Source of the DNA: an uncultured archaeon | GTDB lineage: Archaea > CAYFZR01 | NCBI GenBank assembly: GCA_964347835.1 | Contig: CAYFZR010000082.1 | Location: 1 to 32,000, forward strand | Reading direction: 5' to 3' | DNA length: 32,000 nucleotides | Notes under the pieces: model-generated | The model's database searches: none | What the model was told of the DNA's origin: nothing | The model's input: the letters and a program-made list of their open reading frames with translations, nothing else | Position numbers and translations under genes: made by a program | Part shown: positions 6,633-19,879 of the stretch, piece by piece | Layout: each line of letters begins with the position of its first letter | Numbering within the stretch: the first letter of the stretch is position 1

Positions 6633-6698
6633 AATCTAATTTTAAATTTCTGAATATAAAAAGGAAAATATAAAAACTATGACTTCCGGTTGTGCGTT

Positions 6699-7913
6699 AT
6701 GACAGAAGATGGCTGGAAGCAAATATCCATACTCCTAGGAATCTTACTAATCGCATCGATCATATTACATCTAATTCCTAAAATTCCAGAAAGTAAACAA
6801 CCTCAGGTTGTTACTCAACCCCCTCCAGACTACTACACTCAAGCACCGGGTATTGACCTATCAAACCTTGATGAGAGTAGAAGCACTCTGGCAATAAGTG
6901 TGATGAATGAGATTGAATGCACTTGCGGATGCGGTCTCAGCATAGCAAAATGTAGGAACGAAGATCCAAGTTGTGTTGTGAGTATCGGGATTGGAAATAA
7001 TGTAGTAAGGTTTGCTGAGAAAGGATACAGTGAGAATGAAACCAAATCTGCAATAGTCAGTGGAAAAGTCCCTGAGATTAATGTGAGCGTGGATGACGAC
7101 CCCTTTAAAGGCCCAGAAGATGCACCCGTTACCATAGTAGAGTTCTCCGATTATCAGTGTCCTTACTGCAAGATATTCTTCGATCAAACATTTAATCATA
7201 TTCTTACGCTGTACGAGGGTAATGTAAAGTTCGTATACCGAGATTTTCCCCTAGGCTTTCATCAGTATGCTCAAAAAGCCGCTGAAGCAGCTGAATGCGC
7301 CGATGATCAGGGAAAGTTCTGGGAGTATCACGATAAATTATTCCAAAACCAAGAAACTTGGTCTTCCTTAGGTATTTCAGAGTTCAAAAGATACGCCGAA
7401 GAGGTGGGATTGAATAATGACGAATTTAATCGTTGTTTGGATAATGAAGAAAAAACAAGAGAAGTAAAAAAAGATCTTCAGGATGGAAGGTCTTATGGCG
7501 TTACAGGAACTCCTACTTTCTATATAAATGGTCGAAAACTAAGCGGCGCGGCTTCTTTTTCAAATTTTGTAAGAATAATTGAAACTGAGTTAAAAGAGAG
7601 CAATTCCATCGAATACGAACTTCCTGATTATGCTTACAAGAGTCAAAAACATTTAGAAAGTTATTTGATAGCCAGAAAAATGCCGGAAGTCTTAGATAAT
7701 TTTCCTTGTTACTGTGGTTGCGATAATTTAGGTCACAAAAGTCTTAAAGAATGTTTTATTGAAGAAGACGGAAGTTTTGAAGTACATGGGGCTTATTGTC
7801 AAGCCTGCATGGACGAAAGTTTGGATGTAAATAAATGGTACGGAGAAGGTTTGTCTTTTATTGAGATTAAAAATAGAATAGACGATAAGTATGGATCAGA
7901 AAAGGCTAATTAA
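6699..7913 (+). CDS. membrane-anchored DsbA-family thiol:disulfide oxidoreductase fused to Cys-rich modules (incl. PCYCGC motif)
   Basis: From the N-terminus: a TM helix, a CTCGCGLSIAKC...C cluster, a DsbA/thioredoxin core (VEFSDYQCPYCKIFF ... GTPTFYINGRKL), then a C-terminal PCYCGCDNLGH...C...CQAC module. The ATG at 6699 is preferred over the track's TTG at 6690. Confidence 0.8.
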   Translation: MTEDGWKQISILLGILLIASIILHLIPKIPESKQPQVVTQPPPDYYTQAPGIDLSNLDESRSTLAISVMNEIECTCGCGLSIAKCRNEDPSCVVSIGIGNNVVRFAEKGYSENETKSAIVSGKVPEINVSVDDDPFKGPEDAPVTIVEFSDYQCPYCKIFFDQTFNHILTLYEGNVKFVYRDFPLGFHQYAQKAAEAAECADDQGKFWEYHDKLFQNQETWSSLGISEFKRYAEEVGLNNDEFNRCLDNEEKTREVKKDLQDGRSYGVTGTPTFYINGRKLSGAASFSNFVRIIETELKESNSIEYELPDYAYKSQKHLESYLIARKMPEVLDNFPCYCGCDNLGHKSLKECFIEEDGSFEVHGAYCQACMDESLDVNKWYGEGLSFIEIKNRIDDKYGSEKAN

Positions 7914-12384: not shown

Positions 12385-12567
12385 GGCGCAAATTTGAGTG
12401 ACGTTTATATTATATATCTAATACTCATATTTCATAAAAATTAGGAAAATAACGCGTTTTTATATCATAGTCAATGAGTTAAATTTAAATATGTTGGCAC
12501 ATCTCTGCCATTGTAAGAGACCCAGATAATGTAAAAGAAGGATGCTAAAAACAAGAGGGTTATAATC

Positions 12568-13110
12568 ATGTTATCATATTTCTGGCCCACACCTGATATG
12601 AATATATTCGTAGCGGTTTCCATAATGCTTGCTCTTGCGCCGATAAGCATGATGGTCTTCGCTATTATCAGAGGTTTCGAAGATACCATATTGTGCATGG
12701 AATGCCAGCAGTGTGTCGCAGGCTGTCCGGTAAAAAGGGCACTCGGAGAAGAGTACTATGGCCCAAAAAACCTTATGACTCTAGCAAGAGCCAATCATAA
12801 GATTAAAAGCGCTGAAGGTAGAATTTTTTCGTGTACTTCTTGTGTTAGATGTACCGAAACCTGTCCAAGAGCGCTTTATGTTAAGCACACTATGGATAAG
12901 TACAGGGGTGTTTTATTCAAAGAAAACTTGGGTGTGATGGACGGACATAAAAAACTCGTGGAGAACGTTAGAAAATACAGAAATGTTTTGGATCCGGACA
13001 GAAAGAAACCTCCTTTAGATTCTGTTGTGGAAAAAGTAAAAGAACAAGTTAGCAAACAAGAAATGGCCTTAGGATTAGTGGAGATTCCTGTCGTAGAAGA
13101 AGCAAAGTAG
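12568..13110 (+). CDS. HdrC-like 2x[4Fe-4S] protein with N-terminal transmembrane helix
   Basis: Two CxxCxxCxxxCP motifs (CMECQQCVAGCP and CTSCVRCTETCP) follow a hydrophobic N-terminus (IFVAVSIMLALAPISMMVFAII). Confidence 0.75.
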   Translation: MLSYFWPTPDMNIFVAVSIMLALAPISMMVFAIIRGFEDTILCMECQQCVAGCPVKRALGEEYYGPKNLMTLARANHKIKSAEGRIFSCTSCVRCTETCPRALYVKHTMDKYRGVLFKENLGVMDGHKKLVENVRKYRNVLDPDRKKPPLDSVVEKVKEQVSKQEMALGLVEIPVVEEAK

Positions 13111-13908
13111 GTGGGGCGATTGGCGACTTTGCAAAAAATCCCAGAAAAAGTAATTTTCTTTGAAGGTTGCGTGACCTCGAGAAGAATGCACCACCTACGT
13201 TTTGCAATTCGTTTTTTGCTGGAAAAATTTGGTATTGACTATATTACACTTGACCCAAAAGAGCAGTGTTGCGGATCTCCCATATTCAGAGCCGGGGCGG
13301 TAGATGTTGCCGAAAGACAATTGCTCTATAACCTTAGAGAAATTGAGCAGTCTGGTAGAAATGTCGTGGTATCTGCCTGCCCGGGATGCGGATCTACATT
13401 AAAATCGGATGAGGCTGAGAAGAGAGATATCGAAGTAGTACATATAATGGAGATATTCATGAAATTAGCGGAGGAAGGAAGACTCTTTAACAGCCCCGAT
13501 TTAAGAAATCTAGATGCTACTGTAACAGCCCATTTTCCATGTCATTTGATTAGAGGCATGGGTGTTGATTGTTTTAAAGGATTCAAAGAAATATTCGCCC
13601 AAATGCCCGGCGTAGAATACATTGAATTAGAGGAGGCAAATTCTTGCTGTGGCGCCGGAGGTGGAGTAAGGGCATCTCAGATCGAGTTGGCAAAAAAAAT
13701 CAGAGAAAGAAAGATCGATTTTATTAAAGAAACAGAGGCGCAAATTTGCGTGACGATCTGTCCTTTCTGCGAGATCCATATCGGAGAAGGTTTAAAGGAA
13801 GCCGAACTGCCTATAAGGATTATGTCCTTACCATTCCTTCTTGCTTTGCTCCACAGTGATTTTAGAACAAAGATAGATGAATTAGTGGAAAAAGAAAAGA
13901 GTGCGTGA
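13111..13908 (+). CDS. HdrB-like protein with two CCG domains
   Basis: Two C...CCG...CxxC units: EGC...QCCGSP...ACPGCG and FPCH...SCCGAGGG...ICPFCE. The GTG start immediately follows the upstream stop. Confidence 0.8.
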   Translation: MGRLATLQKIPEKVIFFEGCVTSRRMHHLRFAIRFLLEKFGIDYITLDPKEQCCGSPIFRAGAVDVAERQLLYNLREIEQSGRNVVVSACPGCGSTLKSDEAEKRDIEVVHIMEIFMKLAEEGRLFNSPDLRNLDATVTAHFPCHLIRGMGVDCFKGFKEIFAQMPGVEYIELEEANSCCGAGGGVRASQIELAKKIRERKIDFIKETEAQICVTICPFCEIHIGEGLKEAELPIRIMSLPFLLALLHSDFRTKIDELVEKEKSA

Positions 13909-13912
13909 TCGA

Positions 13913-14272
13913 ATGGAGTCATTGATATATATGTTATTTCTTGTGCTTTCATTGCCTTTTGCTTATTACTACATAAAAACAACTATATTTCCCAATCATG
14001 TTGGAAAAATAAAAAAATTCGAAGGCTACGGAAAAATGTCAGAATGCGAAGTAACCTGTAATACTTCAATCCGAGACATATCAGATGGTAAAATGTCAAT
14101 AAAAATATTGGTTGAACTTCCCGATGGAGAGGAAATAAGGTGTGAAATAAGCCCATGTAACGTATGTTTAGAGAAGTTGAAGCAAGGAGATACGGTAGGC
14201 GTTACAAAACTAGGATCAAGATATATCGCCCAGCCGCTATTATTTAAAAGGGGGTATAACGAGTGCCAGTAA
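13913..14272 (+). CDS. small single-TM protein with Cys-rich beta domain
   Basis: A TM helix (LIYMLFLVLSLPFAYYYI) is followed by CEVTC...CEISPCNVC. The alternative GTG start at 13901 overlaps the HdrB-like stop. The 3' end overlaps the next gene by 10 nt. Confidence 0.55.
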   Translation: MESLIYMLFLVLSLPFAYYYIKTTIFPNHVGKIKKFEGYGKMSECEVTCNTSIRDISDGKMSIKILVELPDGEEIRCEISPCNVCLEKLKQGDTVGVTKLGSRYIAQPLLFKRGYNECQ

Positions 14273-14940
14273 CAATAATAGGCTATATAGCATTGACATT
14301 GTTTTTTGGCATAATATTGGCATCCCTTATGGGAGTAATCCCACAGTCCAGATTACCGATTCAGTCTGCTCTGATTGTGGCAACACTCGTGATAGTATTA
14401 CTCGCCTTCGTTGGTAATTTTATAGGGTATACAGTCGAACTGATTTACCCCATCGATCTTCTGGGACAGATTATAATTCATCCTATTACGGCTTTAATGG
14501 CTGGCTTTTTTGTCGCGGGGGCGCTAGAGGCTTCTGGCGGATTCGAAGCAGCCGCTGATTTATTAGATAGAATGGCTAAGACAAAACTGGGACTTCCGGG
14601 AACCGCTTGCATACTGGCCAACATGCCTACCATAATTAGTATGCCATGCGGTAGGATATTGGGCGCGGCCTTGATGCCTGCAGCACTATACTTTGGATGG
14701 ATTTTGGCAGAGAAAACAGGTAAAAAGGAGTTAATCGGAGTGCTTGTATTTTCATTCATTGTTAACGCAGCAGCATCTTGCGGACCCTCTCCGCTCGGAG
14801 GTATTGGTATGATCGGAGAGGGTATGATAGCAATTCCTCTAACCTCTCTCCAAGATCCTCAACAGGCAGGAATAATGTTAGCAACAGGAACATGCGCATT
14901 GGTGATGAGATTCGTGACACCATTGCTACCCGCTGAATAG
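14263..14940 (+). CDS. polytopic membrane protein, paralog A (conserved MPCGR and ASCGPSPLGG motifs)
   Basis: Multi-TM ORF clearly paralogous to 14952-15680. Shared blocks are HPIxAxxAGFxxAGAL, MPCGRI(L/I)GAA and FIVNAAASCGPSPLGG(I/V)GxIGEG. The GTG start follows GGGGGT. Confidence 0.7.
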   Translation: MPVTIIGYIALTLFFGIILASLMGVIPQSRLPIQSALIVATLVIVLLAFVGNFIGYTVELIYPIDLLGQIIIHPITALMAGFFVAGALEASGGFEAAADLLDRMAKTKLGLPGTACILANMPTIISMPCGRILGAALMPAALYFGWILAEKTGKKELIGVLVFSFIVNAAASCGPSPLGGIGMIGEGMIAIPLTSLQDPQQAGIMLATGTCALVMRFVTPLLPAE

Positions 14941-14951
14941 GAGGGTGAAAT

Positions 14952-15680
14952 ATGGAAGAAAGATTAAAAATCGGATACATTTCATTTTTCTTCTTCATGA
15001 TAGTCTTAGCCGCTGCCATCATACTCTACAGTAAAATGGGGGTGAAAGTGCCTCCAATTCAGACGATTCTCATCTTCATAGCAATAGTAATAATGCTGAT
15101 AAGCAGAGCGAGAATAGAAGATCTTCTTGCAGGAGTAATCTTACATCCAATAATGGCAATGTCTGCTGGTTTCTTGATAGCAGGGGCTTTGGGACTCGCA
15201 GGAGGTTTTGATGCACTACTAGACTTATGCTGGAGGATTGCGGGGCTCGTGGACACCGTTTTTTCCCCATTACAAGGGCTTGGAATATCTCTCTTAGGAT
15301 TAGAGAAAGGTATATCCCTTGGATTGCCCTTCGTGGCCGTTATTATAGTTAACATACCCACCATCACTCCTATGCCCTGTGGAAGGATAATAGGCGCTGC
15401 AGTTATTCCTGGAGTATATTATTTTGCAGAAGCAGTAGCAGGAGCAACCGGAAACACTTTGGCATTACCGGTGTTGGTTGCAGCCTTTATTGTAAACGCT
15501 GCAGCATCTTGCGGACCCTCTCCGCTCGGAGGAGTAGGAGGTATAGGTGAGGGCAACCTGGGAGTAGAAATCGGCTCATCAGGACCATCACAAGAGACCG
15601 GTATAATTATTGCAACAGGGGTTACGGCTCTTGTTATAGCATTCGTGACGGGATATGCCCTGATTCCATATCTAAAATAG
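14952..15680 (+). CDS. polytopic membrane protein, paralog B (conserved MPCGR and ASCGPSPLGG motifs)
   Basis: Same motif set as paralog A, with a ~25-aa insertion after the first conserved block. GGAGGGTG lies upstream of the ATG. Confidence 0.7.
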   Translation: MEERLKIGYISFFFFMIVLAAAIILYSKMGVKVPPIQTILIFIAIVIMLISRARIEDLLAGVILHPIMAMSAGFLIAGALGLAGGFDALLDLCWRIAGLVDTVFSPLQGLGISLLGLEKGISLGLPFVAVIIVNIPTITPMPCGRIIGAAVIPGVYYFAEAVAGATGNTLALPVLVAAFIVNAAASCGPSPLGGVGGIGEGNLGVEIGSSGPSQETGIIIATGVTALVIAFVTGYALIPYLK

Positions 15681-15691
15681 GAGGTAATAAA

Positions 15692-15835
15692 ATGAATCTC
15701 CCTCTCTTAGCAACAATGGTTGGAGCAGGAACTCTGACAGGTATAATGATAAATATAGCGTTGGGCTACAGCCCATTAAATATCGGCGGAATACTAGGCG
15801 GCGCGGTAACTGGATTGCTAATGTTCATACTCTAG
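15692..15835 (+). CDS. 47-aa Gly-rich transmembrane peptide
   Basis: Translates to MNLPLLATMVGAGTLTGIMINIALGYSPLNIGGILGGAVTGLLMFIL. GGAGGT lies 5 nt upstream. It fits exactly into the 11/9-nt gaps of the operon and is below the ORF-track cutoff. Confidence 0.45.
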   Translation: MNLPLLATMVGAGTLTGIMINIALGYSPLNIGGILGGAVTGLLMFIL

Positions 15836-15844
15836 GGTGTTGCT

Positions 15845-16576
15845 ATGGAAATCGAGCCGATTAGGAGAATATCTCAGTTAGTAGTGCTATTCGTAGCCCT
15901 CGTAAGTCTAGGTGCCGTATGCTCTAGAGATCCTTTCTTCATGCTACAAACGATATTTGCAAGGGGTAGCGTACTTCCTACGTTAATTCTTGCGTCCCTT
16001 GGGGGCCTCATCGTTTTTTCATTGATATTTGGAAGAGCGTTTTGTAGTTGGGTATGTCCGTTTGGAACAATACTCGATATATTGAATGGAATAACCTCCA
16101 AGAAACACAAAATACCTGAATTTTTAGAATACAGGTCCTTAAAATATTCTGTACTCGGAGGTTTTTTGATAACTGCTTTCGTATATGGATATACTGCTTT
16201 CTGCACTGTCTGTCCAGCAGGAGTATTTTTTAGATATGTAGAAGTTGCTACTGTTGCACCTGTATTTCCACTCATGCTCTTGGTGGCTGTATTTGTTTTT
16301 GCAATATTCTATCATGGCAGGGCTTGGTGCAGATATCTCTGTCCACTGGGTGCTTTTTTATCTCTAGTTAGTAAATTCAGCTTTACAAAGTTAAAAGTTG
16401 ATAATGAAAAATGTAGAGCATGCCTCTTGTGCCAAAGGACTTGTGCTATGGATTTGTTGGTAGTGGAGGATAGTATATGGAAGAAAAAAGACGCGGTCCC
16501 TCCAGCAGAATGCATAAGATGTGGCGACTGCATCAACGTTTGCCCTGCCGGGGCAATAGAATTTGACATGTTTTAG
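15845..16576 (+). CDS. NapH/MauN-type membrane polyferredoxin (4Fe-4S binding)
   Basis: TM helices carry the paired CxxCP motifs FCSWVCPFG and WCRYLCPLG. The C-terminal soluble 2x[4Fe-4S] region reads CRACLLCQRTC and CIRCGDCINVCP. Confidence 0.8.
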   Translation: MEIEPIRRISQLVVLFVALVSLGAVCSRDPFFMLQTIFARGSVLPTLILASLGGLIVFSLIFGRAFCSWVCPFGTILDILNGITSKKHKIPEFLEYRSLKYSVLGGFLITAFVYGYTAFCTVCPAGVFFRYVEVATVAPVFPLMLLVAVFVFAIFYHGRAWCRYLCPLGAFLSLVSKFSFTKLKVDNEKCRACLLCQRTCAMDLLVVEDSIWKKKDAVPPAECIRCGDCINVCPAGAIEFDMF

Positions 16577-17294: not shown

Positions 17295-17993
17295 ATGAGA
17301 CGACAATCAATAGGTTTTATTATCATAATGATTCTCTTGTTCATAGTTGCCATACCCACTATCTCGGGGGAGGAGCCACAGAGTCCTGAAGAAGTATCCT
17401 ACACGAAGTCTTTTTGTTATGGATGTCATGATGTGGCTCACAATGTTCATGTCGCAGTTGTAGTAGATTGCGCACAATGTCACGGAAATCTGCCAAGAGT
17501 ATTTATTCCTGAATGTGTAGCGTGCCACTCTCCGCCAATCCACAGGATTCACGAAGCTTCCGCTAGAGAAGACTGTCAAAAGTGTCATGGCGAAATAGCA
17601 GCCATTCACGCTGGTTTAGGAGAAGTGATATGCTCCAGATGTCACGGAACAGATGTGGCGAAGATACACGGAGGAGAGACTAGTTGCGAAAAATGTCATG
17701 AAACCGTTCCAAACATCGTAAAACCTCACGCAATGGAGGGAGAGATAGTCTGCCAGGCCTGCCACGAAGATAACCTCATTACAATACATGAACTCATTGC
17801 TACTGGCAATGAAAAATGTTATAAGTGTCATGGAACAGTCCACTTCATACACGCGAAAACTAGATTGGAAAAAGAAGGCAAGAAAGGACCCAGTTGCGAA
17901 AATTGTCACGGATCAGTTGAGATTGGCATACCCGAATGTACTCAGTGTCACAGACCTGAAGTCGTACACACTCTCAGCGCACTCATAGGTTAG
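17295..17993 (+). CDS. decahaem c-type cytochrome with N-terminal signal/anchor helix
   Basis: Ten CxxCH motifs counted in 232 aa: CYGCH, CAQCH, CVACH, CQKCH, CSRCH, CEKCH, CQACH, CYKCH, CENCH, CTQCH. There are 11 further His residues. The hydrophobic N-terminus is IGFIIIMILLFIVAIPTISG. Confidence 0.85.
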   Translation: MRRQSIGFIIIMILLFIVAIPTISGEEPQSPEEVSYTKSFCYGCHDVAHNVHVAVVVDCAQCHGNLPRVFIPECVACHSPPIHRIHEASAREDCQKCHGEIAAIHAGLGEVICSRCHGTDVAKIHGGETSCEKCHETVPNIVKPHAMEGEIVCQACHEDNLITIHELIATGNEKCYKCHGTVHFIHAKTRLEKEGKKGPSCENCHGSVEIGIPECTQCHRPEVVHTLSALIG

Positions 17994-18019
17994 GGTTGAT
18001 CCCCTTTTATTTTTTAAAA

Positions 18020-19009
18020 ATGAAAAAGGAAAAAATTAGCTTCACAAATCTGGAAAAAGAGGTAATAGAGATAGGTCTTTGTTCCTATTGTGGAACATGC
18101 ATGGGCGTTTGTCCGCCCAAATGCATAGGGATCGAAGATGAGACCATCTCCCTCGTAGGTGAATGTAAAGAATGTGGCGTATGCCTTTCAAAGTGTCCGA
18201 GGTTTGATCTAAGGGTAGATCTGGAAGATCTTGGACCCTATTATGATGAATACATAGGCCCGTATTCAAAAATCCCCTGTGCTAAATCTAAGAGTGATGA
18301 TATCATTAATGTTTGCCAAGATGGAGGTGTAACAACCTCTCTACTTACCTATTTATGCGATTTAGGCGATTCAATAGTCGCTGTTGACAGGGATGAAGAA
18401 TGGAAACCCATACCCATACTTACCAAAGATAGGAATGATCTAATTAAAGCTGCTGGCTCAAAATATTCTGTTGCAAGTCCAAATAGAGTTTTAAGCGATG
18501 TCAAGGATTCAGTATCTGTAGTAGGTACTCCATGCCAAATTGAGGGTCTAAGGAATATAATTTTGAACCCCAAAGGTGCAAAGAAGTTGGCTTCTAAATT
18601 AAATATTTTGATAGGTTTCTATTGCATGGAAAATTTTGTTTATTCAAAATTAAAGAGATTTATATTAAAAAATGGAATTGATATAAAAAATGTGAGAAAG
18701 TTCGATATTAAAAAGGGAAAATTCCTTATATATGAAAGAGAAACCCATGAGTTTCCACTTTCAGATTTAGAGGGCTGTATTTCTAGGGGATGTCACTTTT
18801 GTAGGGACTTTACTGCCATGATGGCAGATATTTCGGTGGGTAGTTTGGGATCTCCATCAGAATATAACTCAGTTATTATTAGGACAGAAAAAGGACTAAA
18901 CTTATGGAAGAACTGTGTAAAGGAAGGATACATAGAAGAAAGTGAAACTGAGGTAAATTTAAAACCTATAAGAAAGTTATCTCGGAAAAAAAGGGAGCGA
19001 AAAATATAA
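18020..19009 (+). CDS. F420-dependent oxidoreductase beta/FpoF-FrhB family subunit with N-terminal 2x[4Fe-4S]
   Basis: CSYCGTCMGVCP and CKECGVCLSKCP are followed by an FrhB/FdhB-like body (CQDGGVTTSLL ... VGTPCQIEGLR ... FYCMENF ... CHFCRDFTAMMADISVGS). The ATG at 18020 is preferred over the track's TTG at 17996. Confidence 0.8.
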   Translation: MKKEKISFTNLEKEVIEIGLCSYCGTCMGVCPPKCIGIEDETISLVGECKECGVCLSKCPRFDLRVDLEDLGPYYDEYIGPYSKIPCAKSKSDDIINVCQDGGVTTSLLTYLCDLGDSIVAVDRDEEWKPIPILTKDRNDLIKAAGSKYSVASPNRVLSDVKDSVSVVGTPCQIEGLRNIILNPKGAKKLASKLNILIGFYCMENFVYSKLKRFILKNGIDIKNVRKFDIKKGKFLIYERETHEFPLSDLEGCISRGCHFCRDFTAMMADISVGSLGSPSEYNSVIIRTEKGLNLWKNCVKEGYIEESETEVNLKPIRKLSRKKRERKI

Positions 19010-19042: not shown

Positions 19043-19879
19043 ATGGAGATGGTAGTAAAAGTAGGCGTAATTAAGTGTGGAGCTATTGCTACTTCCGCGA
19101 TGTTAGACCTTCTTTTAGACGAAAGAGCGGATAGAAAGGACATTTCCACTAAAGTAGTCGGTAGCGGTGCGAAGATGGGTCCAGAAGATGCTGAAGAAGC
19201 TGTAAATAAACTTTTAGAATTCGATCCTGACATGGTTATATACATTGGACCGAATCCAACAGTGGCTGGACCAAAAAAGGCTAGAGAACTGCTATCTGAG
19301 TCTGGAAAGCCTTCTTTGATTATTGGTGATGCTCCCGGTGTAAAAGCAAAAGAGGATATGGAGAAGGAGGGTCTTGGATACCTACTTATAAGGGCAGATT
19401 CTATGATTGGAGCCCGGAGAGAATTTCTTGATCCAACGGAGATGGCAATATTTAACGGAGATCTCATCAAAGTGCTCGCATCTACTGGAGCCTTCAATAT
19501 AGTTGTAGAGGCCATTGACAGCATGATAGAAGCCGTAAAGGAAGGTAAAGAGGTAGAACTCCCAAGGATCGTCATTACAAGAGACAAGGCAGTTGAAGCG
19601 GCTAACTTCACCAATCCATACGCAAAAACCAAGGCGATGGCATCCTATGAGATTGCTACAAAGGTAGCGGACCTGGATGTGGAGGGTTGTTTCGTTGTAC
19701 AAGATCCCAACAAATATATTCCAATTGTATCAGCAGGTCACGAGATGTTAAGGATTGCTAGTATTCTGGCAGAAGAAGCAAGAGAAATAGAAAAATATGG
19801 GGATACTGTATTCAGAAGACCTCATTTAGCAGAAGGTAAGTTAGTACAAAAGATAGAACTTATGAAAAAACCCGATTAA
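19043..19879 (+). CDS. mtd: F420-dependent methylenetetrahydromethanopterin dehydrogenase
   Basis: The N-terminus VKVGVIKCGAIATSAMLDLLLDERADRKDISTKVVGSGAKMGPE and the ~278-aa length match the Mtd family closely. Confidence 0.9.
   Translation: MEMVVKVGVIKCGAIATSAMLDLLLDERADRKDISTKVVGSGAKMGPEDAEEAVNKLLEFDPDMVIYIGPNPTVAGPKKARELLSESGKPSLIIGDAPGVKAKEDMEKEGLGYLLIRADSMIGARREFLDPTEMAIFNGDLIKVLASTGAFNIVVEAIDSMIEAVKEGKEVELPRIVITRDKAVEAANFTNPYAKTKAMASYEIATKVADLDVEGCFVVQDPNKYIPIVSAGHEMLRIASILAEEAREIEKYGDTVFRRPHLAEGKLVQKIELMKKPD

Follow-up and report, generated by a model that had tools for sequence, protein, structure and literature searches.

The seven genes at 12568-16576 may encode a single membrane redox complex, a reading to which we give a probability of about 0.4. 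Four cysteines of two paralogous membrane proteins would then make up a redox-active centre that works by alternating access, similar to that of RnfA/RnfE and NqrD/NqrE. The genes, p1 to p7, lie on the + strand of the window (the whole 32,000-nucleotide stretch of DNA analysed) and their host is an uncultivated Hydrothermarchaeota-like archaeon. The sequence-only reading had listed seven closely packed ORFs of one strand, and all seven were found where it placed them. Its junctions are also reproduced: 0 nt for p1/p2, -8 nt (from the GTG start 13901) or +4 nt (from ATG 13913) for p2/p3, -10 nt for p3/p4, +11 nt for both p4/p5 and p5/p6, and +9 nt for p6/p7. Database gene callers start p3 at the ATG, giving the 119-aa protein P0129. 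Clear Shine-Dalgarno sequences precede p1 (GAGGG), p4 (GGGGGT), p5 (GGAGGGTG), p6 (GGAGGT) and p7 (AGGGTG), while those of p2 and p3 are weak or absent, so the earlier statement that each gene has its own is only partly right. The intergenic region upstream (12385-12567, + strand) reads directly as A/T-rich, with TATA-like stretches TTTATATTATATAT and TTTTTATATCA and the GAGGG of p1, and is a putative archaeal promoter and 5' leader. The proposed single transcription unit agrees with the conservation of the cluster and its transcription-unit-like layout.

On their profile matches, p1 and p2 make up a split HdrD/TfrB-like module with p1 as the N-terminal half. p1 (12568-13110, + strand, 180 aa) is a membrane-anchored HdrC-like ferredoxin, with a hydrophobic N-terminal TM helix followed by two CxxCxxCxxxCP [4Fe-4S] motifs (Pfam Fer4_8, E 3.8e-9). 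Its Fe-S domain should lie on the cytoplasmic side. p2 (13111-13908, + strand, 265 aa) is a soluble HdrB-like protein whose two complete CCG domains (Pfam CCG, E 3.5e-33, two stretches) read directly as C20...C53C54G...C90xxC93 and C144...C179C180G...C217xxC220. These Pfam matches confirm the earlier HdrC-like and two-CCG HdrB-like assignments. The NCBIfam model TfrB is matched by p1 at positions 135-265 (E 5e-17, far under cutoff) and by p2 at positions 261-481 (E 4e-55, 187 bits against a cutoff of 385), and the nearest solved structures to p2 are HdrB chains (E 4e-19). An HdrC-like di-cluster protein with a two-CCG HdrB-like protein at the cytoplasmic face is shared with HdrDE, DsrMK(JOP), HmeCD, TmcBC, TfrAB and SdhE. 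Unlike in HdrDE/DsrMK-type complexes, however, the module consists of two proteins and has a TM helix of its own as anchor, the cluster has no HdrE/NarI-type cytochrome b or DsrM-like subunit, and the membrane partners are the NapH-like p7 and an Ion-Transporter (IT)-fold pair. The NCBIfam equivalog scores of the cluster products are all far under cutoff, and the cluster indeed matches none of HdrABC, HdrDE, DsrMK, Hme, Qmo and Lut.

p7 (15845-16576, + strand, 243 aa) is a NapH-like Fer4_5 membrane protein with 4 TM helices, two CxxxCP motifs, one CxxCP motif and two C-terminal [4Fe-4S] motifs, features that it shares with NapGH, MauMN and NosGH-NosR. The NapH/MauN-type assignment is borne out by Pfam Fer4_5 (E 8e-25) and by TIGR02163 (E 7e-41), although the latter scores 140 bits against a cutoff of 213. 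No NapG-like, NapAB, Mau or Nos genes were found in the window. p7 occurs in loci of Hydrothermarchaeota, Thermoplasmata, Altiarchaeota and Undinarchaeota but, unlike in NapGH-type modules, it is missing from the Halobacteriota-type cluster (MAG locus L031). Its clusters are probably cytoplasmic, as p1, p2 and p3 probably are. p3 (13901-14272, + strand, 123 aa, or 119 aa from ATG 13913) has an N-terminal TM anchor and a small four-Cys domain that probably faces the cytoplasm. It had been described as a single-TM protein with the pattern CxxxC...CxxxxCxxC; the anchor and the Cys domain stand, but the pattern conserved in alignments is Cx2-3C ... SPCxxC, which leaves C80 and C122 of the window protein outside. 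p3 also carries a GxxVGVTKxGSRxIAQ motif. It has no match in Pfam, NCBIfam or the PDB, and its database relatives number only 11, each annotated 'hypothetical'.

p4 (paralog A, 14263-14940, + strand, 225 aa) and p5 (paralog B, 14952-15680, + strand, 242 aa) are 44% identical (E 1e-43) and are paralogs, as had been proposed; p5 has a lineage-specific insertion following an amphipathic helix. p6 (15692-15835, + strand, 47 aa) is a Gly-rich two-helix membrane peptide (…GxMINI…GGxxGGxxxGLLMxxL), already noticed in the sequence-only reading. It is kept after B in most archaeal loci, is often duplicated, and forms the C-terminal two helices of the fusion proteins P0062-P0066 in other lineages. It is a real gene, and its product belongs to the A/B module as an accessory subunit. 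For p3, p4, p5 and p6 neither Pfam nor NCBIfam has a matching family, and at the sequence level p4 and p5 show no match to a characterised transporter family in these collections. The p3-p6 families are tiny, with about 66 representatives among 1.84 billion proteins.

The paralogs had been considered impossible to place, but at the level of fold they can be. The AF2 model of p4 has a pLDDT of 81, and a model of P0062, a natural p4-p5-p6 fusion, has a pLDDT of 84 and a pTM of 0.86. A Foldseek search of the PDB with the P0062 model gave 36 matches with E<1e-3, and the matches listed are all transporters of the IT superfamily (VcINDY, Pho90, ArsB, TRAP). VcINDY gives the best E-value (6e-7) and ArsB the best TM-score (0.61/0.67); TM-scores span 0.5-0.67, with probability 1.00 and about 450 aligned columns. 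By these models p4, p5 and p6 together are one IT-superfamily (ArsB/DASS/TRAP-like) protomer cut into two halves, p4 being the first half and p5 the second. By analogy with known structures of the fold, the halves should be inverted. Three observations are consistent with this: natural A-B fusions have short linkers (P0061-P0066, and the 440-aa protein of L019), the K/R bias in A is opposite to that in B, and extracellular domains are attached to the N-terminus of A, with a Sec-type signal and beta-helix (NosD-like) or CARDB domains in P0067 and P0094. p4 would thus have its N-terminus out and its C-terminus in. As in ArsB, DASS/VcINDY, Pho90, TRAP DctM and AbgT, a hairpin and a broken helix occur in each of two repeats. 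Unlike in that superfamily, the protomer is made by two genes and a small peptide, lacks sequence-level membership in the family, and carries four invariant cysteines at binding-site positions.

Each paralog has two of these cysteines, therefore four per pair. In p4, C129 (MPCGR) is at the tip of the re-entrant hairpin and C173 (SCGPSPLGG) at the helix break, and p5 has the same two motifs. In the P0062 model short non-helical breaks occur only at 115-119 FAMPC, 162-170 SCGPSPLGG, 337-341 FPMPC and 384-392 SCGPSPLGG, and the four lie in these. Judged from the fold, this is where the substrate and ion site would form, in the middle of the membrane. An invariant Arg adjoins the hairpin Cys (PCGR), and Asn, Thr, Glu and Gln are invariant too. 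The claimed invariance holds: MPCGR and NAAASCGPSPLGG are unchanged in 34 homologs, which include both paralog types, and all four cysteines are also kept in an alignment with divergent bacterial fusions of about 25% identity. Such invariance, from archaea to these fusions, fits a site of catalysis or cofactor binding better than a cargo site, which tends to vary.

The same site could alternatively serve a transporter of thiophilic cargo with reductive loading or release (a Mer/Ars-like logic), which is possible though a less probable account. Sulfane or polysulfide sulfur, a thio-anion, FeS(aq) or a soft metal or metalloid would be bound by the four cysteines and carried across by the elevator, and the Fe-S/CCG module would reduce the Cys-bound cargo, persulfide or disulfide for release into the cytoplasm. 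Elevator transporters have this fold, and the arsenite pump ArsB gives the top TM-score; the cysteines are at substrate-binding positions, and an anionic cargo and a coupling ion would be equally suited to the invariant Arg with Asn, Thr, Glu and Gln. To our knowledge, the characterised IT-fold proteins are all solute transporters and none is a redox protein, which counts against a redox centre. CCG proteins such as HdrB and DsrK reduce disulfides and trisulfides, and the presence of the CCG subunit suggests chemistry on disulfides or sulfane sulfur more than plain electron transfer, a further point against the redox centre. The beta-helix or CARDB domains on some A paralogs could capture substrate, and a DsbD_2-type membrane gene adjoins the cluster in Altiarchaeota and Planctomycetota. 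The carriers are all MAGs from anoxic or hydrothermal-type samples, which would suit such cargo. Against this, a four-Cys site would hold soft metals extremely tightly, and the binding residues stay invariant between very distant lineages even where the redox partners differ. No cargo-specific accessory gene recurs across the loci; NikR is confined to a single locus, and genes of the Mer, Ars or TusA/DsrE type were not found.

The cluster is syntenic in MAGs of Hydrothermarchaeota, Thermoplasmata, Halobacteriota, Altiarchaeota and Undinarchaeota, so its genes stay together in 5 phylum-level groups of archaea. The order p1-p2-p3-A-B-p6(-p7) is held in all but the Altiarchaeota, where it is rearranged yet intact. 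The A/B module always lies beside electron carriers, and the carriers are exchangeable. In archaea they are HdrC/B-like and NapH-like proteins, with p1 homologs adjoining the pair; in bacterial loci weak p1 homologs do likewise. Planctomycetota have a p1-like ferredoxin fused to cytochrome b561, and FMN_bind proteins adjoin the pair in Coatesbacteria and in a divergent bacterial clade. In Coatesbacteria an FMN_bind plus Fe-S protein recalls NosR. It is very improbable that p4, p5 and p6 are an ordinary solute transporter beside an unrelated Hdr-like/NapH-like operon. The fold assignment would favour this, but the gene order is held across lineages, neighbouring genes overlap or have at most 11 nt between them, p3 and p6 occur solely in this cluster context, in P0069 p3 is joined upstream to A (a second TM helix and an extracellular-type domain separate the two), and the bacterial versions again put the module beside electron carriers. 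Thermoplasmata loci encode three extra ferredoxins, all with twin-arginine motifs by direct reading, which places Fe-S proteins on both membrane faces there. In each of two families one scored member passes TIGR01409, as does a second member of the third; the Fd158/172 family has no match to this model. The 132/149-aa family is weakly NapG-like, in parallel with NapGH.

The redox-centre reading draws on Rnf and Nqr. RnfA and RnfE are homologs set in opposite orientations, and their helices are unwound at the centre. Each of four kinks contributes one invariant Cys to the binding of a metal centre within the membrane, which takes electrons from the TM-anchored ferredoxin RnfB and passes them to the extracytoplasmic FMN protein RnfG (PMC9588780). 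In Nqr the corresponding centre is [2Fe-2S]; according to the proposed mechanism, the switch between inward and outward states and the transport of Na+ are driven by its redox state (PMC12901251). p4 and p5 are likewise a homologous, probably inverted membrane pair with two invariant cysteines each at mid-membrane breaks. A TM-anchored ferredoxin is nearby (p1, as RnfB), FMN_bind partners occur in bacterial A/B clusters (as RnfG/NqrC), and alternating access is proposed for both. However, p4/p5 are not homologous to RnfA/E and have no Rnf-Nqr Pfam match, their fold is of the IT type with re-entrant hairpins rather than six-helix, the window lacks RnfC, RnfD and RnfG homologs, and the cofactor at the Cys site is putative. 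The centre would most likely be a small Fe-S or metal centre, or alternatively a dithiol/disulfide pair. It would exchange electrons at the cytoplasmic face with the membrane-tethered Fe-S domains of p1, p3 and p7, and an elevator motion would present it to the opposite face.

Such a Cys pair also recalls CcdA/DsbD, which the sequence-only reading had invoked with one Cys per repeat half. Conserved Cys beside Pro in membrane segments, a two-repeat inverted architecture and possible transmembrane transfer of reducing power are common to both, but the partner is thioredoxin in CcdA/DsbD and Fe-S/CCG here. Homology was rejected: there is no Pfam DsbD or DsbD_2 match, the fold differs and there are two Cys per repeat. 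A relay of this kind, with the cysteines cycling between dithiol and disulfide, reduced inside by the CCG/Fe-S module and acting outside on a protein or small-molecule disulfide, is unlikely. The disulfide-reductase-type CCG subunit, the Cys-Pro motifs (PCG, CGPSP), the alternating access implied by the fold, the DsbD_2 gene at several loci and a DsbA-like/PCYCGC protein encoded 4.6 kb upstream in the window would agree with it. Yet a buried HdrB-type CCG site takes small or flexible substrates and may not readily reach membrane-embedded cysteines, and no cluster has a thioredoxin-fold partner. The bacterial clusters have neither a CCG subunit nor a thioredoxin-like reductant, and have extracytoplasmic-type FMN_bind or cytochrome b instead, which speaks against both relay and cargo; CCG-site disulfide chemistry therefore cannot be the universal core.

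The earlier proposal, in which the membrane proteins couple a CCG/Fe-S site in the cytoplasm to a membrane or outside partner, remains viable: the Tat-exported ferredoxins of Thermoplasmata, FMN_bind and cytochrome b partners favour it, and the bacteria without CCG do not. The window version encodes no recognisable extracytoplasmic redox partner, which would count against the redox centre, and NapH-like, NosR-like or cytochrome b partners could themselves take electrons across the membrane, leaving the pair with another role. We know of no description of an obligatory genomic tie between the IT superfamily and Fe-S, flavin or haem carriers such as p4/p5 have, nor have we found described the combination of Fe-S electron-transfer proteins with a transporter-shaped four-Cys pair. 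As a redox complex, it would connect the cytoplasmic thiol/disulfide couple of the CCG site with either the quinone pool or a partner outside the cytoplasm, possibly with coupling to ion translocation, and would realise the logic of RnfA/RnfE and NqrD/NqrE on an unrelated fold.

The cluster is predicted to encode a membrane redox complex of CCG/NapH type whose membrane module has no known precedent. It consists of seven plus-strand ORFs (p1 to p7) within 12568–16576, with junctions of 0, -8 (or +4), -10, +11, +11 and +9 nt. Upstream of it are 183 nt of A/T-rich intergenic sequence containing TATA-like stretches; downstream, the nearest gene encodes a TFIIE-alpha homolog and begins 89 nt past p7. 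An SD, claimed from sequence alone for every ORF, is clear at p1, p4, p5, p6 and p7 but weak at p2 and p3. There is no second cluster copy in the window. The nearest public relative is locus L007 in a Candidatus Hydrothermarchaeota MAG, with 95% protein identity for p4. NCBI product names are "hypothetical protein" or "4Fe-4S binding protein".

Three subunits carry recognisable domains. The 180-aa p1 has a hydrophobic N-terminus and two CxxCxxCxxxCP motifs (Pfam Fer4_8). The 265-aa p2 has two complete CCG domains (PF02754, E 3.5e-33, two stretches), and both CxnCCGxnCxxC patterns are present by direct reading of the sequence. The 243-aa p7 has a Fer4_5 domain (PF12801, E 8e-25), and two CxxxCP motifs and two C-terminal 4Fe-4S motifs can be read directly. 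These matches bear out the HdrC-like, two-CCG HdrB-like and NapH/MauN-type calls of the sequence-only reading. Because p1 matches residues 135–265 and p2 residues 261–481 of NCBIfam TfrB, which are consecutive parts, the two proteins make up a split HdrD-like module. TfrB is also the best NCBIfam score of p2 (187 bits against a cutoff of 385); HdrB TIGR03288 scores 82 against 345 and DsrK 29 against 400. None of the curated equivalog cutoffs for TfrB, HdrB/C, GlpC, LutA, LutB or DsrK is reached, all scores being far below, and the PDB chains closest to p2 are HdrB (E 4e-19). Similarly, p7 resembles NapH/MauN (E 7e-41) and shares their Fer4_5 domain and motifs, but scores below the cutoffs of TIGR02163 (140.5 against 213 bits) and PRK09477 (137.6 against 234), and no Nap or Mau genes occur in the window. 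Pfam and NCBIfam detect no HdrE/NarI/DsrM-type cytochrome b among the seven products or the flanking genes. p1, p2 and the Fe-S clusters of p7 carry no export signal and are presumed to be cytoplasmic. The earlier statement that the cluster matches no known arrangement holds for HdrDE, DsrMK, Hme, Tmc, NapGH and Rnf/Nqr, since it lacks one tested defining feature of each. No description of it was found in the searchable open-access literature.

The remaining four of the seven proteins, p3, p4, p5 and p6, belong to families without any annotation. None has a Pfam or NCBIfam match, p4 and p5 giving only noise at E≤1, and a PDB profile search with the A/B profile and with p3 found nothing. p4 (paralog A, 14263–14940) and p5 (paralog B, 14952–15680) are paralogs with 44% identity (E 1e-43). 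A word-indexed search of 5.8 billion proteins gave 60 relatives, all unannotated, and a profile scan of 1.84 billion cluster representatives gave no more than 66; all relatives are MAG or metagenome sequences. Two cysteines are invariant in each paralog, C129 in MPCGR and C173 in NAAASCGPSPLGG (p4 numbering), as against the one cysteine per repeat half of the CcdA/DsbD relays to which the earlier reading compared them. H73, P74, N120, R131, N168, E186 and Q200 are also invariant. The four cysteines of the pair stay invariant when bacterial fusions of about 25% identity are added to the alignment. The 11 relatives of p3 have in common a TM anchor, the cysteine pattern Cx2-3C ... SPCxxC and the motif GxxVGVTKxGSRxIAQ.

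The fold of the module is recognisable only from a natural A-B-p6 fusion and not from a single-paralog model. Several relatives are natural A-B fusions, part of them also with a p6-like Gly-rich C-terminus (p6 itself is a 47-aa Gly-rich TM peptide). An AF2 model of p4 alone has a pLDDT of 81 and no significant Foldseek match, the best being at E 2.6 with weak similarity to VcINDY/NaS1. The AF2 model of the A-B-p6 fusion P0062 (pLDDT 84, pTM 0.86) gives 36 matches at E<1e-3, and all of those among the matches listed are elevator transporters of the Ion-Transporter (IT) superfamily, including VcINDY (E 6e-7), Pho90, ArsB (TM 0.61/0.67), SLC13, TRAP SiaQM/IseQM and AbgT. The model has the fold-level feature of this superfamily, namely two repeats, each with TM helices, a re-entrant hairpin and a discontinuous helix. 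In solved members such as VcINDY, four such elements converge into a mid-membrane substrate and ion site. The invariant motifs are the sole short non-helical breaks in the P0062 model: FAMPC and FPMPC form the tips of the two helical hairpins, and two SCGPSPLGG segments break the helices that follow. Because the motifs occupy the converging elements of the fold, p4, p5 and p6 are modelled as one split protomer with the four cysteines at the predicted substrate site. The models thus assign the pair to the IT superfamily at fold level and to no named IT family; neither p4 nor p5 has a significant Pfam or NCBIfam match to ArsB, CitMHS, DASS/Na_sulph_symp, DctM or AbgT, and the distant relative P0094 has a sub-threshold CitMHS match (E 9e-4, 18.8 bits against a cutoff of 31.9). 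The paralogs were first reported as unplaceable, which is true of sequence families but not of the fold.

A CcdA/DsbD-type thiol-disulfide logic had also been suggested. It fails as homology, as p4 and p5 have no DsbD or DsbD_2 Pfam match, an IT fold in place of 3+3 TM helices, and two cysteines per repeat where CcdA/DsbD have one. As a function, a DsbD-like dithiol relay is conceivable, and we consider it unlikely.

Several features give indirect evidence on how the module is oriented in the membrane. Part of the A paralogs start with a Sec-type signal followed by beta-helix/NosD-like or CARDB domains, which would place the A N-terminus outside. P0069, a database relative, joins p3 to A in one protein, with a second TM helix and an Ig/CARDB-like domain in between, and this layout would place the p3 Cys domain in the cytoplasm. 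The linkers in natural A-B fusions are too short for a membrane crossing. K/R-rich loops show opposite bias in A and B, a sequence pattern that agrees with the inverted repeats expected of an IT fold. From these features we infer a probable topology of the cluster overall, with A/B repeats that are likely to be inverted. The extracellular domains, which are of a capture type, also bear on the main rival explanation, in which the module keeps an ancestral transporter role and its cysteines bind a thiophilic cargo for reductive release. The ArsB-like fold, the invariant Arg, Asn and Glu residues and the CCG chemistry speak for it as well, and we regard it as possible although doubtful.

The closest working precedent, by analogy, is given by RnfA/RnfE and NqrD/NqrE. 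These are inversely arranged homologs whose helices are unwound centrally, and four invariant cysteines, one per kink, bind an intramembrane Fe or [2Fe-2S] centre (PMC9588780, PMC12901251). In them the TM-anchored ferredoxin RnfB feeds the centre and an extracytoplasmic FMN protein reads it; the proposal is that the redox state of the centre powers both Na+ translocation and the switch between inward and outward forms (PMC9588780, PMC12901251). The A/B pair has in common with them that it consists of paralogs, each with two invariant cysteines at non-helical intramembrane breaks (PMC9588780, PMC12901251). Homology to Rnf-Nqr was not detected for p4 and p5, either as a Pfam or NCBIfam match or as an Rnf/Nqr chain among the 50 listed Foldseek matches.

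The cluster is conserved in at least five archaeal phylum-level groups and three bacterial groups, all instances being known from MAGs only, so that the neighbourhood conservation proposed as a check is found. A scan of 185,579 species genomes gave 39 loci, all in MAGs; gene orders were obtained by tblastn with the seven window proteins, neighbour genes by targeted tblastn, and metagenome contigs show gene orders in accord with the genome loci. Hydrothermarchaeota and Thermoplasmata/Methanomassiliicoccales have p1-p2-p3-A-B-p6-p7. MAGs labelled "Methanobacteriota" have p1-p2-p3-A-B-p6, with p7 in L032 and L033 and not seen on the short L008 contig, and Halobacteriota MAGs from tar biofilm have the same order without p7. 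Altiarchaeota have p3-A-B-p6-...-p7-p1-p2, and Undinarchaeota have p1-p2-A-B-p6-...-p7 with no p3 detected. In most lineages a second p6 paralog is present, and in most there are three extra ferredoxin-like genes whose products have an N-terminal hydrophobic or signal segment; as these ferredoxin-like genes are missing there, the window holds a minimal version of the cluster. In Thermoplasmata all three extra ferredoxins have textbook twin-arginine motifs (TRREF, DRRKFIKHLG and TRRDFLK), so that the outer face, too, is predicted to carry Fe-S proteins. The TIGR01409 cutoff is passed by three of six proteins (two per ferredoxin family), covering two of the three families, and Fd158/172-type ferredoxins have no TIGR01409 match. 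The smallest of the three families is weakly NapG-like. In the Altiarchaeota versions, which show RR or RQ, a Tat signal is less evident. NapG-like Tat-signal ferredoxins belong to other lineages only, as do FMN_bind proteins and cytochrome b, and lie outside this window.

In the bacterial versions the core is kept and its partners differ. A-B-p6 is a single protein in Coatesbacteria, Planctomycetota and unclassified bacteria, and after it comes a TM-anchored ferredoxin of p1 type; tblastn detects no CCG or NapH-like gene in the bacterial clusters. Planctomycetota have this ferredoxin fused to a cytochrome b561-type domain, and upstream of their module lies a p3-like gene. In Coatesbacteria a 676-aa FMN_bind and Fe-S protein comes after the fusion, and a divergent bacterial clade has a 52-aa peptide, a 158-aa ferredoxin and a 250-aa FMN_bind protein. 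Because archaeal and bacterial clusters share them, A, B, p6, a membrane-tethered ferredoxin and usually p3 form the universal core, and the electron-input and output modules are exchangeable between lineages. To our knowledge this is the first IT-fold protein tied genomically to Fe-S, flavin or haem electron carriers. Mere co-location of a transporter and a redox operon, the explanation on which this persistent pairing bears, is very improbable.

Starting from the observed domain content, the modelled fold, the position and invariance of the cysteines and the pairing with electron carriers, our preferred reading, by analogy with Rnf/Nqr and with a probability of about 0.4, is that the four cysteines form a redox-active centre within an alternating-access module. 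Electrons would reach the four-Cys site, and the module would connect the thiol/disulfide couple of the cytoplasmic CCG site with the quinone pool or with a partner on the outer face. A more specific proposal, which we put forward only tentatively, is that p4/p5/p6 is a third, independently evolved solution on the Rnf/Nqr principle, an elevator fold with an intramembrane four-Cys Fe-S centre whose redox changes would power either alternating access with ion translocation or transmembrane electron transfer without haem. The chance is considerable that the A/B module operates by a mechanism so far undescribed for this fold.

Other genes in the window and around related loci were also recorded. 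The flanking genes (Mtd, FrhB-like, NifH-like, purine genes and a ten-haem cytochrome c) fit an anaerobic archaeon using the H4MPT pathway. The cytochrome (17295–17993, +), 719 nt 3' of the cluster, is a 232-aa c-type protein; it contains ten CxxCH motifs, and its N-terminal segment is hydrophobic. Its stop codon lies 2 nt before the start of an FrhB/FdhB-like gene with an N-terminal ferredoxin domain (17996–19009), after which comes Mtd (19043–19879). A multihaem cytochrome abutting an F420-type FrhB homolog is an unusual pair, and it could be an extracytoplasmic electron outlet of the organism. Outside the operon, 4.6 kb upstream of the cluster, a 407-aa protein (6690–7913, +) with a DsbA-like thioredoxin domain fused to a PCYCGC domain suggests that the same genome encodes extracytoplasmic chemistry on thiols and disulfides or on metals. 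A second contig of the Hydrothermarchaeota MAG b3.sp1_bin.60 (L043, 4401–5949) carries an incomplete further set in which a single B-type paralog (83% identical to p5) is directly followed by a NapH-like gene (71% identical to p7), without an A paralog, p1–p3 or p6. In the small genomes of DPANN Undinarchaeota (L026, L028) an eight-gene cluster comprises p1, p2, A, B, p6, two ferredoxins and p7; its p1 homolog ends in a long tail rich in charged residues.

A DsbD_2 (PF13386) membrane protein gene adjoins the cluster in loci L016, L018, L019, L023, L024, L032, L044 and L045, which belong to Altiarchaeota, one "Methanobacteriota" MAG and both Planctomycetota loci (there directly upstream of the p3-like gene); recurrent across domains, it may be functionally linked to the cluster. 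In some Altiarchaeales (L019, 6200–6628 and 13088–14149; also L018, L029) a GcvH-type lipoyl-carrier gene lies directly before p3, in three loci, and a lipoate-protein ligase gene after the cluster, in two. These neighbours recall sHdr/LbpA systems and flank L019 on both sides, but their distribution is restricted to those three and two loci, and we rejected an sHdr/lipoate link as a core feature. The AIRS-domain gene past p7 in two Thermoplasmata contigs (L001 10236–11246, L011 4748–5737), directly after the NapH-like gene, is AIR-synthase-like "methanogenesis marker 2" (TIGR03267, above cutoff) and not SelD, and with two loci only a selenium link was dropped; the marker is a hint that methanogenic relatives of Methanomassiliicoccales are among the carriers. 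In one Planctomycetota MAG (L045, 7899–9899) the ferredoxin-cytochrome b561 fusion has 512 aa and a NikR-type regulator gene comes directly after it; the regulator is absent from the sister locus L044, and a nickel link was not retained. In the divergent clade (L046–L049) an Ldh/Mdh-family dehydrogenase gene and an NHL-repeat protein gene consistently lie ahead of the high-GC A-B fusions (P0105, P0106).

Single-chain fusions of about 480 aa occur naturally and give good models, which makes the choice between a redox centre and a cargo site directly testable. If the four-Cys site is a cargo site, sulfur or soft metals would be taken up in sulfidic habitats by a new route that depends on redox chemistry. 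If it is a redox centre, it would be a new module for membrane energy coupling or transmembrane electron transfer in lineages of largely unknown bioenergetics. Should the Rnf/Nqr principle apply, Altiarchaeota, Hydrothermarchaeota, uncultivated Thermoplasmata and DPANN Undinarchaeota would possess an unrecognised energy-coupling site with exchangeable electron inputs.
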